From IMG/VR virus record IMGVR_UViG_3300037153_000606: a stretch of DNA of 64,000 bases. One strand, written 5' to 3'. The notes under the pieces are model-generated. The model was not told where the DNA came from. It ran no database searches and saw only the letters and a list, made by a program, of their open reading frames with translations. This document shows, one piece after another, positions 29,535 to 49,273 of the stretch. The position numbers and the translations under genes were made by a program. This DNA is from a virus. Positions within the stretch are counted from its first letter, which is position 1; the number at the start of each line of letters is the position of its first letter.

Positions 29535-30087
29535 GGCACGGCTTGGCCGGGCATGCCTTGGCGCGGTTTGGTTCGGCAGTCAGGGCGCGGCCTGGCCCGG
29601 CGCGGCTGGTCAAGGCTTGGCCTGGCATGGCAGGCGCGGCAACGGCTAGGCAGGGCTTGGCCGGGTTTGGTCAGGCTTGGCATGGCAGGCAAGGCGGGGC
29701 CCGGTTAGGTACGGCGAGTTAGGGCGGGGCAGGGCACGGCAGTCGCGGCAAGGCTAGTTAGGGTTCGGCCGGGCTTGGCCGGGTTTGTCAGGGCAGTCGT
29801 GGTTCGGCCCGGTTCGGCTAGTCGGGGCCTGGTTGGGCACGGCAGGCATGGTACGGCTTGGCGAGGCATGGCAACGCAAGGCGAGGCGCGGCAGTCGGGG
29901 TTTGGCTTGTCGCGGCCAGGCACGGTCCGTCCCGGCTCGGTAGTCGTGGTGCGGCTGGGTCCGGCAGGGCTAGGTGCGGCGCGGTGCGGCAGCCGTGGTT
30001 GGGCATGGTTCGGCAAGTCCAGGCTAGGCAGGTCGCGGCAGGCAAGGGCAGGGTCTGGCGGGTTAGGGCGCGGTTGGGCGTGGCAGG
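29535..30087 (+). ncRNA. Orphan GGY-NN pentamer guide array (11 units of about 8-10 pentamers)
   Basis: 5-nt period with GGCA(G) phase shifts every 49-55 nt; flanked by TAGAAT and a hairpin; same grammar as the array next to the RAMP-like gene. Confidence 0.8.
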
Positions 30088-30118
30088 GCCCCGGTTCTTC
30101 ACTAAGTGGAACCGGGGC
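30088..30118 (+). terminator. Hairpin closing the orphan array
   Basis: 10-bp stem GCCCCGGTTC / GAACCGGGGC. Confidence 0.6.
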
Positions 30119-30489
30119 TCGTGTCATCATGTGCCGGTGATGCACGAGCCCTGCCCGTCCTGCGGACACGCGATCATCGACCACCTTCCGGGCGGGTGTA
30201 GCAGATGGGACTCGGTGTGGGAACCATTCCTGAAGTACTACCGAAGGGTGTGGTGCAGGTGCCGACAGAATCTCGCTGTTACCCCACCGGCATCGCCCCG
30301 CAGTCCGGAGATGTACTCGGCATCTACTGCGACAAGTGTGATCACACCAACGTGATCCACCGGCGCGAGGACGGCCAGTGCGCCGCCTGCCGCACCGAGG
30401 CGATGACCGACGAGTTCATCGCCGACGCGGCCAGGGAACTGCGGGATGCCTGGAACGCCCTGTTGGCCAGCGCGGAGAAGCGCCAGGGC

Positions 30490-30522
30490 AATGTCCTGAA
30501 CTGAGGCACGCGCCCGAAGTAG
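30490..30522 (+). promoter_or_regulatory. Putative late promoter AATGTCC-N19-GAAGTAG
   Basis: Recurring bipartite motif. Confidence 0.6.
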
Positions 30523-30525
30523 GGG

Positions 30526-45873: not shown

Positions 45874-46848
45874 ATGACCCAGCTGATGGTCCCGCAGGGC
45901 GTCCAGGTCCCGATGAAGTCGGACGACTACGTCGCCCAGATCATGGCCAGGCACCAGGGCAAGACAGCCACCCACAACCAGAAGCTGCAGGCCATCGCGC
46001 GGGTGCTCTCCGACGAGGTCTCCGGCTTCAAGCGGCTCGGTGTCGGCATGATCGGCCCGATCCAGCTCAAGCTGCGTTATCAGGGCATCACCCGCAACGT
46101 GCTGGTCGAGGACCCGGTCACGCCGGGCACCCCGGTCGAGTACGACGTGTGGGACGACCTGGGCCAGGCCTTCATCCTGTCCGGCAACGAGGGCGAAGTC
46201 GACATCACGATCTTCGAGGGCAAGCGGGTGCGGGTGGACTTCTACCGCATCGCGTCGCAGGCCCAGATCCGCAAGGAAGACCTGATGTACCTGCGCATCA
46301 ACGCCGTCGAGCAGGCGCAGGACGAGACCAAGCAGTCCATCCTCAAGCAGGAGGACTCCCGGCTGATCATCGTGTTGCAGGCGGCGCTGACCAACTACGC
46401 GACCCGGCCGGACCACGTGATCACCCCGAACCACACGGTGTCGGAGACCTCGGGCTACTACACCCCGGCCTCGTTCTATCAGGCGGTCGCGCAGACCGAC
46501 ATGCACGAGCTGGTGTCCAGCCGCATGCTGGTCAACCCGATGGACTACCGGGACTTCTTCAAGTGGGACATCAACACCACCGGTTGGGCGTTCAAGGACC
46601 GCGTGGTGGCCGGTGAGACGATCACCAGCTTCGGCGAGTTCCAGGTGCAGCGCTCGATCATGGTGCCGCAAAAGTCGCTCTACCTGCTGCCCGAGCCGAA
46701 CTTCCTCGGCGTCTTCCCGGTCCTGTACAGCTTGGACGTGGAGGAGAACCACCAGGTGGCGCGCTTCCTGCGCGGTTGGGTGTTCGACGAAATGGTTTGC
46801 CAATTGGTTCTCAACCCGAGAGGCATAGCGGCTGTTACCAAGCCGTGA
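45874..46848 (+). CDS. Major capsid protein
   Basis: MIGPIQLKLRYQGITRNVLVED...GWVFDE...LNPRG; 324 aa; RBS AGGAG. Confidence 0.85.
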   Translation: MTQLMVPQGVQVPMKSDDYVAQIMARHQGKTATHNQKLQAIARVLSDEVSGFKRLGVGMIGPIQLKLRYQGITRNVLVEDPVTPGTPVEYDVWDDLGQAFILSGNEGEVDITIFEGKRVRVDFYRIASQAQIRKEDLMYLRINAVEQAQDETKQSILKQEDSRLIIVLQAALTNYATRPDHVITPNHTVSETSGYYTPASFYQAVAQTDMHELVSSRMLVNPMDYRDFFKWDINTTGWAFKDRVVAGETITSFGEFQVQRSIMVPQKSLYLLPEPNFLGVFPVLYSLDVEENHQVARFLRGWVFDEMVCQLVLNPRGIAAVTKP

Positions 46849-46864
46849 GACCATAGTTTTACGT

Positions 46865-46907
46865 TACTACCCCTTCCCATTCGATGGTGAAGGGGTAGTA
46901 TCGTTTT
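46865..46907 (+). terminator. Hairpin after the capsid gene, also occluding the RBS of the downstream nuclease gene
   Basis: 12-bp stem TACTACCCCTTC / GAAGGGGTAGTA followed by TCGTTTT. Confidence 0.65.
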
Positions 46908-47738
46908 ATGCCTCGGCCGCCGTCTCCAACGACTTCGAAGACGTGTCAACGTGACGGTTGCGATAACCGATTCGAAGTCACCCAAGCCAAAGCTCAGAGG
47001 GATCGTCGATTTTGTTCGAAAGATTGCTCGAACAAAGCCACCGCGCTAATCCGTGGCGCTTCGTATCGAGCCAGTCATGGGTATAAGCCGCCAGTTTGTC
47101 CATGTGGTCGTTCTATCCAACCGAGACCGGGCCAGCGGTACGTCTATTCGAAGAAATATTGCGACATGGAGTGTCGTGCTCGATTTAGCCCGAGGCGACA
47201 ACCCAATCCTGAAAAGTGGGGTTCATACACGTGTCGCGTGTGTGGCACTGAATTCACCCGCCGGAAGAACTCTCGTAATGCCAAGATCTATTGCAGCCTT
47301 GCGTGTGCCAACAAGGAGACCAAGAAGAAGCATCACATCGTGTTGCGCGATGACGATGTTGTGTTCGACAGTGCCTGGGAGGCGTTCTTTTACGGCGCGT
47401 GCAAGATCGCGAAGATCCCGATCGAACGGTTCGACCGAGATCATGGTGTTGCCTACGACCCAGAATACCTGGATCGGTGGTACGCGCCAGACTTCTGGTT
47501 GCCCGACGTCCAGGCATGGGTCGGTCGCACCGGCGTTGCGATCGAAATCAAAGGTGTTGAAGACGACCGCGACGAAACCCGGTGGACCGCCTTCCGGTCG
47601 ACGGGAGTCGACCTGGTGGTGATGGACCGGTACCGGATGGAGAACCTGTCTGCACACTCGTTGTCCGACATCCTGCGAGTCGCCACGATGAGGGACAATC
47701 CCGCCTTGCCATGCCAAGCCGCGACACGCCTAGCCTAA
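46908..47738 (+). CDS. Free-standing endonuclease with Zn-ribbon repeats and a PD-(D/E)XK-like domain
   Basis: Three CxxC...(F/Y)CxxxC repeats; DSAWE...YAPDFWLPD...IEIKG; lower GC. Confidence 0.7.
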   Translation: MPRPPSPTTSKTCQRDGCDNRFEVTQAKAQRDRRFCSKDCSNKATALIRGASYRASHGYKPPVCPCGRSIQPRPGQRYVYSKKYCDMECRARFSPRRQPNPEKWGSYTCRVCGTEFTRRKNSRNAKIYCSLACANKETKKKHHIVLRDDDVVFDSAWEAFFYGACKIAKIPIERFDRDHGVAYDPEYLDRWYAPDFWLPDVQAWVGRTGVAIEIKGVEDDRDETRWTAFRSTGVDLVVMDRYRMENLSAHSLSDILRVATMRDNPALPCQAATRLA

Positions 47739-49273
47739 CCTTGCCACGCCGAACCAGGACTGCCGCGCCCTGCCAAGGGTTGCCCCGCCCAACCCAACCG
47801 GGCCTCGCCTGGCACGCCGAGACGAACCCGGCCAAGTACCGCCGTGCCATGCCGCACCTTGGCAGCCTCACCGAGCCATGCCGAGCCATGCCCATCCACG
47901 CCGTGCCCTGACCACCATGCCGTGCCTGCCGAGCCACGCCAAGCCTTGACCCGCCCTGACGGGCCGAGCCTTGCCCTGACTGCCGAACCACGCCAAGCCA
48001 CACCAAGACCCGACCTGCCAAGCCGAGCCGTGCCGAGCCATGCCTGCCCCGCCGCACCACGCCGCACCATGCCGCTGCCCTACCGTGCCGCACCCTGCCC
48101 GCCTTGCCCAGCCAAGACGTGCCACTCCAGGCCAAACCCTGCCCGCCTTGCCTCACCTCGCCGTGGCCCGCCCAACCGCACCGAGCCCCGCCAAGCCTGC
48201 GTCGCCCCGCCGTGACCCGTCACGCCGGGCCCAACCAAACCACGCCTGCCCGACCGAGCCCTGCGTTGCCCTGCCTGGACCAACCGCGCCTCGCCTGCCA
48301 TGCCCCACCTGGCCAGACCATGCCCAGCCGTGCCAGCCTGCCAAACCGAGCCCTACCGAGCCGTACCCAGACGAGCCAAGCCACACCGTGCCCGCCCAAC
48401 CGGGCCGCACCGGGACTCGCCGAGCCCTACCTTGCCTGCCTTGCCGAGCCGAGCCTCGCCAAGCATTGCCATGCCCAGCCGTGCCTGCCGAACCGAGCCC
48501 TACCGGGCCGAGCGGTGCCCTGCCTGGCCTAGCCGCGCCGCGACTGCCCTGCCTTGCCTCACCCAGCCTTGCCGAGCCGCACCAAGCCTTGCCGCGCCTG
48601 CCGTACCTCGCCCAGCCGAGCCCGGACGGACCTAGCCCCACCGCACGGTGCCCTGCCGAGCCATGACTGCCCTGCCCTGCCGCACCGAACCGAGACGTGC
48701 CGGACCACCCGGGCCAAGCCACGACTGCCGTGCCACACCCTGCCGACCATGCCCAACCCAGCCATGCCGAGGCTGCCCCGCCGTACCGGACCCGGCCGCA
48801 CCAAACCAAGCCATGCCTGCCGCGACCTGCGATGCCCTGCGGTACCAGGACATGCCGTGCCTGCCGAGCCGGGACCCGCCCCGCCATGACTAGCCATGAC
48901 CGGACTTGCCCCACCGAGCCTGCCCAGCCACGCCTTGCCCAGACTTGCCAGGCCTTGCCGTGCGCTGCCAGCCGAGCCAAGCCTTGGCTGCCTCGCCACG
49001 CCGAGCCCTGCCGAGCCCACCTAGCCTTGCCCTGCCACGGCTGCCCTGACATGACCCGCCGTGCGATGCCGAACCGGGCCGGACCATGCCTGCCTACCAG
49101 GCCACGCCCCGACTCGTCCCGCCTTGCCTTGCCTGCCGGGCCGAGCCTTGACTAGCCATGCCTAGCCACGCCATGCCGAGGCTGCCCAGCCATACTGCGC
49201 CGTGCCGAGACTTGCCCCGCGACGACCCGACATGCCTGCCCGACCTCGCCACGCCCACCTAGCCGTGACTGCC
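47701..49273 (-). ncRNA. Main GGY-NN pentamer guide array (about 30 units, about 300 pentamers)
   Basis: 5-nt periodicity with GGCAG(G/T/C)C unit junctions; directly downstream of and co-oriented with the RAMP-like gene pair. Confidence 0.85.

Follow-up and report, generated by a model that had tools for sequence, protein, structure and literature searches.

A probable VIPR guide library in an actinophage-like genome from soil, with five guides that match conserved motifs of immune and mobile-element genes

Which genes does a phage address when it carries dozens of short, degenerate guide units in tandem, and by what rule are these units read? The question is raised by the IMG/VR virus record IMGVR_UViG_3300037153_000606, of which a stretch of 64,000 nucleotides (nt) was analysed (hereafter, the window). 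The window is phage-like, originates from soil metagenomes and is rich in guanine plus cytosine (G+C; about 66%); as to its host, the evidence extends to Actinomycetota-like relatives. We consider it likely that the region in question is a Viral Interference Programmable Repeat (VIPR) system, comprising a vipr gene, a vap partner gene and two arrays, of about 33 and about 10 guides, respectively, and that this library has as its targets accessory genes of defence islands and of rival mobile elements. More specifically, five of the guides match the DNA of conserved motifs in phospholipase effectors of the immune system CBASS, in the TIR protein ThsB, in the ThiF/E1 proteins of multiubiquitin/E2 operons, in SNF2 helicases and in phage-type MazG proteins.

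VIPR systems have been described as consisting of a small RAMP protein, Vipr (~20 kDa, built around an RRM core and carrying a glycine-rich loop), an accessory gene, vap, and guide RNAs termed vrRNAs, which are built of 9-16 GGY/NN repeats; the NN pairs of the vrRNA bind double-stranded DNA with one base skipped, usually the wobble base, and transcription is repressed (bioRxiv 10.64898/2026.04.26.720920). Cryo-electron microscopy has shown that Vipr protomers grip each GGY triplet along a helical filament (bioRxiv 10.64898/2026.04.26.720927). VIPR has been described as acting on rival phages, satellites, prophage regulators and other VIPR loci, and the words CBASS, Thoeris and anti-defense do not occur in the VIPR preprint texts consulted (bioRxiv 10.64898/2026.04.26.720920, 10.64898/2026.10.15.759431).

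A periodicity scan of the window revealed runs of GG(C/T)-NN pentamers at positions 29520-30106 on the plus strand and 47688-49194 on the minus strand, together with short runs at 32042-32136 and 42162-42246. We delimited the units of the arrays by a dynamic-programming parse of the 5-nt repeats. The main vrRNA array (47701-49273, minus strand; GC skew, -0.21) was resolved into about 33 units that directly adjoin one another, each made up of 8-13 GGY-NN pentamers, with 4-nt GGCA/GGTA phase shifts between units. The second, or orphan, array (29575-30085, plus strand) lies 19 kb from vipr and on the opposite strand, and follows the same grammar, with about 10 units of 49 or 54 nt and GGCA/GGTA junctions. 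Taken together, the arrays hold about 43 guides of 8-13 pentamers each, with unit periods of 49, 54 and 59 nt; GGC and GGT predominate among the pentamer triplets, GTC, GCC and CGC being found in some, and the NN pair varies freely. The parse of both arrays showed no 3' tail or pseudoknot on the units, which abut at the 4-nt GGCA/GGTA junctions. Within units of the minus-strand array, two 4-nt tokens, i.e., GGGT (48710-48713) and GGTC (48745-48748), act like pentamers that lack one GGY base; the units read below as SNF2 and HNH motifs contain one 4-nt token each. An earlier inspection of the sequence (the original prediction) had placed the arrays where we find them, and the two units that it quoted, at 29894-29938 and 29943-29987, were reproduced with their peptides by our independent parse.

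For decoding, the NN series of each unit was reverse-complemented, each pair was taken as positions 1 and 2 of a codon, and the units were searched as NNx DNA patterns in public collections. Read in this manner, the units at 29890-29938 and 29939-29987 yield [DE]GGV[CW]A[KN][KN]P and AAA[Y]LG[HQ]AT, respectively, and the units at 48548-48490, 48299-48251 and 47813-47765 yield [DE][DE]LG[DE]VL[CW]YAA, R[DE]L[FL]L[CW][HQ]AS and AL[KN][FL]P[HQ][HQ]GS, respectively. Matches in frame and in sense orientation accounted for 38 of 38 with the MazG guide, 11 of 11 with the patatin guide, 68 of 68 with the SNF2 guide, 116 of 120 among the matches listed for the ThiF/E1 guide, and 6 of 7 with the TIR guide. 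As an empirical background for an 18-base pattern in IMG/VR, failed patterns of equal size gave 0-2 matches, none of them in a gene of the predicted family. The dinucleotide composition of 34 units likewise favours codon positions 1 and 2, for which the log-likelihood was -890 versus -1000 or lower for the other registers (a difference of >100 log units). The NN series correspond to codon positions 1 and 2. A programmable guide library in which the wobble base is skipped had been proposed for this locus, and it agrees with the published VIPR rule. The matched stretches are strongly conserved motifs, located in DNA of 29-74% G+C, which fits a library written against protein families; the further proposal that the guides favour motifs resistant to change is supported by the same matches.

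The patatin guide (29890-29938, plus strand, in the orphan array) reads DGGVWANNP, the motif of the catalytic Asp, and its 11 IMG/VR matches are exact. All four of the proteins tested were recognised over their full length by the PADLOC model PDLC00757, a CBASS 'Effector Phospholipase' (E 1e-102 to 9e-111), and they also scored as Pfam Patatin. In the two high-G+C contigs examined, L048 and L051, a cyclase gene (E 1.5e-181 and 1.4e-157, respectively) and an E2 gene adjoin the matched phospholipase effector, a composition that identifies a CBASS operon.

The TIR guide (48251-48299, minus strand) reads RDLFLCHA(S), the first strand of the domain, and finds 17 of its 18 bases in ThsB genes. With one mismatch allowed, RDLFLCHAW was found in frame in 6 of 401 Actinomycetes genomes, versus three matches for a backwards control pattern; the exact search of IMG/VR returned two matches, both out of frame. 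The six proteins concerned were recognised over their full length by the PADLOC ThsB1 model PDLC00424 (E 4e-80 to 6e-93), and also as Pfam TIR_2. Four ThsB regions were examined, and one of them forms part of a defence island on the chromosome, alongside type IV restriction-like and Ssp-like genes (Orf5/HEC-06, SspH-like).

The SNF2 guide (48672-48729, minus strand) reads LLADEVGTGKT, i.e., helicase motif I, and includes the 4-nt token GGGT; read as GG-GT with NN = GT, this token supplies the T codon of the motif, and the match is then exact in three phage genomes. More specifically, the full match of 22/22 bases (11 codons) falls in the helicase of three complete phages (G406-G408; 63-65 kb, 63-65% G+C). 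When one codon was left open, the 68 IMG/VR matches read LLAD(D/E)VGxGKT. Among five target proteins tested, one (on L056) is DrmD-like (E 3e-192) and one is a PLD_Helicase (E 0), and three, from among many such helicases on viral contigs, are generic SNF2 proteins that score weakly on defence models; two of these three carry the full match, and the third represents the form common on phage contigs. Among 101 Actinomycetes genomes sampled, 12 carry a match to the SNF2 guide at one mismatch or fewer; SNF2 helicases account for 13 of these 14 matches.

The MazG guide (48490-48548, minus strand) reads (D/E)ELGDVLWYAA; its 38 matches are exact and on viral contigs of IMG/VR, and the Pfam MazG model (PF03819) recognises five of the target proteins. 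In 121 sampled Actinomycetes genomes, no match was found at two mismatches or fewer, so this guide appears to be aimed at a phage-type gene and not at a host housekeeping gene.

The ThiF/E1 guide (49046-49094, minus strand) gave at least 120 metagenome matches, of which at least 116 read LIPVIDGGI in frame. The matched proteins are 450-630 amino acids (aa) long and score as Pfam ThiF (1e-26 to 1e-33), and they are weak on CBASS E1-E2 models. Multi_ubiq lies upstream of the ThiF gene in contigs L294 and L281, and L281 also encodes Prok-E2_E, which together make up a ubiquitin-like conjugation operon. An antiviral role has been ascribed to operons of this kind. The islands that contain the ThiF/E1 genes also carry integrase, HigB toxin or ImmA/HTH genes.

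Because few sampled Actinomycetes genomes matched the MazG, SNF2 and TIR guides (0 of 121, 12 of 101 and 6 of 401, respectively), the targets are accessory genes and not core host genes. For none of the five guides did the best matches fall in housekeeping or unrelated genes, the outcome that the original prediction had named as contrary to it. Eight motifs had been named in that prediction. Four of them, i.e., MazG, patatin, SNF2 and TIR, gained gene matches beyond chance, and the remaining four gave nothing above chance: the HNH motif, the MBL (metallo-beta-lactamase) motif, the tyrosine-recombinase motif and the helix-turn-helix (HTH) motif. The ThiF/E1 motif comes in addition to these eight. 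The broader claim, that the library targets defence and mobile-element genes, held in part: the patatin and TIR guides match CBASS and ThsB genes and the MazG and SNF2 guides match phage genes, whereas the four other motif assignments stand without a gene.

For these four units, the searches were as follows. The HNH unit (VTLEIHHID; 48730-48777, minus strand) has a single IMG/VR match, which reads VTLEIQQMD in a 214-aa frame on a contig of 38% G+C and is not HNH-like by eye. The MBL unit (ALKLPHHGS; 47765-47813, minus strand) has no match in IMG/VR and none in 301 genomes at one mismatch or fewer. The one IMG/VR match of the tyrosine-recombinase unit (AAAYLGHAT; 29939-29987, plus strand) is interrupted by a stop codon, and the unit read as an HTH motif (48338-48396, minus strand) has no match in IMG/VR. 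Likewise, a 13-codon unit at 48671-48603 gave no metagenome match.

The proteins encoded next to the main array were then compared with known VIPR components. The vipr gene (49826-50452, minus strand) encodes a 209-aa Cas7-like RAMP protein (P0001). When its family profile was compared with the sequences of the PDB, the sole significant match was to 'SUSP1 Vipr protein' (PDB 36pp_D; E 4.6e-7). The AlphaFold2 model (predicted local distance difference test score [pLDDT], 84.5) is closest to Cas7-family RAMPs, which make up all of the best PDB folds (8z4j_J, E 1.8e-6; Csm3 6xn3_F, TM 0.51). This profile match and this fold place the 209-aa protein in the Vipr family. It also shares with SUSP1 Vipr a conserved stretch rich in Gly: G178/G182/G184, followed by W186-R187-P188, aligns there with GVGDWRP. 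Sequence identity amounts to 59-61% with gp39 of Gordonia phage UmaThurman and gp19 of Ecliptus, and to 46% with gp49 of Mycobacterium phage Donkeykong. The product is assigned to phrog_4652, and no Pfam family matched either it or the vap candidate. The family numbers >4,700 proteins, all unannotated; relatives with 54-65% identity occur in the genomes of many Actinomycetota, and more distant ones occur in other phyla. Two 151-nt soil metatranscriptome contigs are identical to parts of vipr (49979-50129 and 50227-50377) and none falls on the array; these contigs possibly reflect DNA carry-over and are no proof of transcription.

Directly downstream of vipr lies the vap candidate (49364-49819, minus strand), which encodes a 151-aa accessory protein assigned to phrog_15946. 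Homologues are found in UmaThurman (gp41; 39% identity, E 7e-28), near vipr but beyond the guide array, and in Donkeykong (gp50; 27% identity, E 2e-11), directly after vipr. Its AlphaFold2 model (pLDDT 70) retrieved no PDB fold below E 0.3, only weak winged-helix-like matches. The same array grammar adjoins the Vipr homologues of Donkeykong and UmaThurman, and in both UmaThurman and the temperate cluster F phage Donkeykong the VIPR system adjoins the immunity region. In GenBank, the arrays of these cultured actinophages are annotated as hypothetical protein genes (Donkeykong gp48, L039 3982-4368; UmaThurman gp40, L040 4009-4332), and the vipr and vap homologues in the same records are listed as hypothetical proteins.

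How does this locus relate to the VIPR systems already described? In 'staggered' vrRNA arrays, adjacent vrRNAs follow one another without spacers and overlap by 1 nt, according to the legend of figure S18 (bioRxiv 10.64898/2026.04.26.720920), and as far as this legend goes the 1-nt overlap fits the 4-nt phase shift between 5-nt repeat runs seen here. The text of that preprint, which distinguishes seven VIPR types, contains no words beginning with Mycobacteri, Actino or Gordonia. The type II VIPR systems of Escherichia phage SUSP1/SUSP2 and of a Pseudomonas fulva prophage (PDB 36pp) resemble the present locus in having a small Cas7-like Vipr and an accessory gene, in being phage-borne, in using GGY-NN pentamers with a 1-base skip at the wobble position, and in that self-targeting was not seen; within the 64-kb window, none of the units gives a better match than shuffled units. 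In contrast to these systems, only the C-terminal third of Vipr is alignable here (32-34% identity), vap is unrelated in sequence, and there are about 43 guides instead of 4. Furthermore, the targets here are spread over several protein families, whereas the SUSP1 system converges on one satellite or prophage. At the SUSP2 locus, a Vipr homologue and a small partner gene lie between YNNGG arrays, with tails between the repeat tracts; as the units described here lack a 3' tail, we do not class the locus as type II VIPR, and its architecture resembles that of the 'staggered' arrays.

By analogy with SUSP1, the units would be excised one by one as vrRNAs, on each of which Vipr protomers would assemble into a polymer and grip every GGY triplet, the NN pairs would base-pair with double-stranded DNA with every third base skipped, and the bound complex would block transcription. 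Genes would be addressed as families, by way of motifs that stay recognisable whatever the synonymous changes, and binding would lower the expression of the target to the advantage of the phage. The sequence evidence suggests, though it falls short of proof, RNA-guided counter-defence by this phage. A bolder form of this idea, which we put forward tentatively and rate as possible rather than probable, is that gapped guides in codon register constitute a broad-spectrum, programmable counter-defence, in which one guide, written against a catalytic or structural motif that does not vary, would silence an entire family of immune genes across many hosts, possibly with a preference for the coding strand. 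The families in question would be the CBASS phospholipases, Thoeris ThsB, the E1 of ubiquitin-like operons, and helicases of the DISARM or PLD type.

Several observations weigh against a library aimed at defence islands and rival elements. Targets have been identified for only 5 of about 43 guides, four of the named motifs having none, and an enrichment for defence is therefore not quantifiable. The patatin guide matched none of the 101 sampled Actinomycetes genomes, and the CBASS operons that it did match are on viral or proviral contigs of IMG/VR, one of them classed as a provirus. The TIR guide falls one base short of an exact match, and no ThsA was found among those neighbouring open reading frames (ORFs) of ThsB that were tested in four genomes, which are part of the neighbours only. 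The evidence on the host extends to Actinomycetota-like relatives, and the matched genes may lie in genomes that this phage does not meet. The absence of a 3' tail or pseudoknot sets the units apart from those of type II VIPR, and the vap candidate has no sequence similarity to the protein in the vap1 position of SUSP2. For this actinophage clade, vrRNA expression and processing, DNA binding and silencing would all be carried over from SUSP1; that the clade works like the published VIPR systems, and that the matched families are the natural targets, we infer. Finally, silencing after infection would leave immune proteins that had already been made in place, so that counter-defence of this sort would help most in lysogeny or in long infections.

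The most serious competitor to a purpose in counter-defence is that the guides serve in warfare between elements only, directed at rival phages, prophages and satellites, with defence genes struck merely as the cargo of such elements; we see this as a genuine, if lesser, possibility. The published VIPR targets are rival elements, the SNF2 guide is perfect in three complete phages, the MazG matches are viral, and the ThiF/E1 operons adjoin integrase, HigB toxin and ImmA/HTH genes. The explanation by cargo retains its place, since it is viral or proviral contigs, one of them a provirus, that hold the matched CBASS operons, and since none was found in the 101 sampled Actinomycetes genomes. Apart from the SNF2 guide itself, however, the parsed units find no match in the three complete phages with the perfect SNF2 target, and a comparison of the guides with about 210 loci, including 80 vipr loci, gave no match at ≥88% of NN bases; there is thus no convergence on one rival, in contrast to SUSP1. 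Two further points argue in the same direction, namely, that one of the four ThsB regions lies in the chromosomal defence island with Orf5/HEC-06 and SspH-like genes, and that the guides lie on effector motifs instead of on lysis-lysogeny regulators.

The orientation of the guides raises another possibility, that guides in this clade act on mRNA, or on the coding strand only. The five verified guides are all complementary to the coding strand, which is a small number, and by composition this orientation is the best fit in 27 of 34 units, six units fitting the opposite orientation, with slim margins for each unit; SUSP1 targets, unlike these, are reported on both strands (bioRxiv 10.64898/2026.04.26.720920). 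As the published biochemistry and structures demonstrate binding of double-stranded DNA (bioRxiv 10.64898/2026.04.26.720920, 10.64898/2026.04.26.720927), we regard RNA targeting as unlikely.

Part of the library, especially the orphan array, could also serve as decoys that redirect or titrate the Vipr of competitors instead of arming the phage's own, a role described for satellite-borne solo vrRNAs (bioRxiv 10.64898/2026.10.15.759431). The distance of 19 kb between the orphan array and vipr, and its location on the other strand, would suit such a role, but vipr and vap are both present in this phage, the two arrays follow one grammar, and among the units of the orphan array there is one that matches the CBASS phospholipase and not a repetitive host element, all of which makes decoys decidedly improbable. 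That the likenesses to motifs arose by chance, having been picked by eye from about 43 degenerate peptides, describes well enough the chance-level HNH, MBL, tyrosine-recombinase and HTH units and the unmatched 13-codon unit, and is nevertheless refuted for the five verified units, which gave 11 to >116 matches (six in-frame matches for TIR), almost all of them in frame and within a single protein family, against the 0-2 matches of failed patterns of equal size, so that as a general account it is very hard to credit.

Both the machinery and its code have already been published, and the locus adds a further, very large VIPR system from an actinophage clade that has been little described. What is new is the list of targets: in at least two cases the guide matches an effector gene of an established immune system, and in one more it matches the E1 of a suspected one. 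If these targets are real, phages have an RNA-guided means to disarm bacterial immunity, one that, by disregarding wobble bases, would address whole protein families. The role of VIPR would then be wider than is known at present, long arrays that do not converge on one enemy would be explained, and a simple, testable design for family-wide gene silencing would be at hand.

Other phage systems offer points of comparison. Vibrio phage ICP1 is said, in work attributed to Seed et al. in Nature in 2013, to carry a CRISPR-Cas system directed at the PLE island. Both that system and the present one would be phage-borne and RNA-guided, and ICP1 reportedly aims at a host-resident anti-phage element; its system is said to be of type I-F, with contiguous spacers, and to destroy the DNA of one island, whereas here the guides are gapped, the motifs are family-wide and repression is expected. 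The sponges Acb1/Acb2 and Tad1/Tad2 are protein counter-defences against CBASS and Thoeris, which act on signalling molecules after infection. If the counter-defence interpretation holds, the same immune pathways would be concerned here, with a guide acting on the gene instead.

Some further features of the window deserve mention. No close relative of the phage was found in the phage collection searched, either by megablast or by tblastn of the neighbouring genes. A scan of the region at 47.4-50.9 kb detected no promoters or terminators above shuffled sequences, and one RNA run (soil metatranscriptome) gave no reads on the array. DNA-contig joints within the array have short sides and probably stem from related arrays. 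Directly 3' of the orphan array, a G+C-rich, terminator-like inverted repeat (30086-30120, plus strand) was seen in the sequence by eye. Upstream of the same array, a 606-aa ORF (27277-29097, plus strand) contains Pfam DUF4082 and Laminin_G_3, which are typical of a tail fibre or receptor-binding protein, and the orphan array is accordingly placed among structural genes; for the other ORFs flanking this array, Pfam gave no match. The short runs at 32042-32136 (plus strand) and 42162-42246 (minus strand) are each single, consist of about 10-11 GGY-NN pentamers, and lie inside the very long ORFs 30526-34677 and 41463-45263, respectively; these could be guide units nested within coding sequence, or else remnants. 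Convergent on the end of the main array, the ORF at 46908-47738 (plus strand) was assigned to phrog_1271, an HNH endonuclease (E 2e-15). Finally, a 93-aa ORF (19341-19619, plus strand) has a weak sequence match to PDB 9ptq_A, 'Acb2 homolog 43' (E 0.0042, 20.6 bits); a genuine match would mean that the phage encodes, besides its guides, a protein sponge for CBASS signals.

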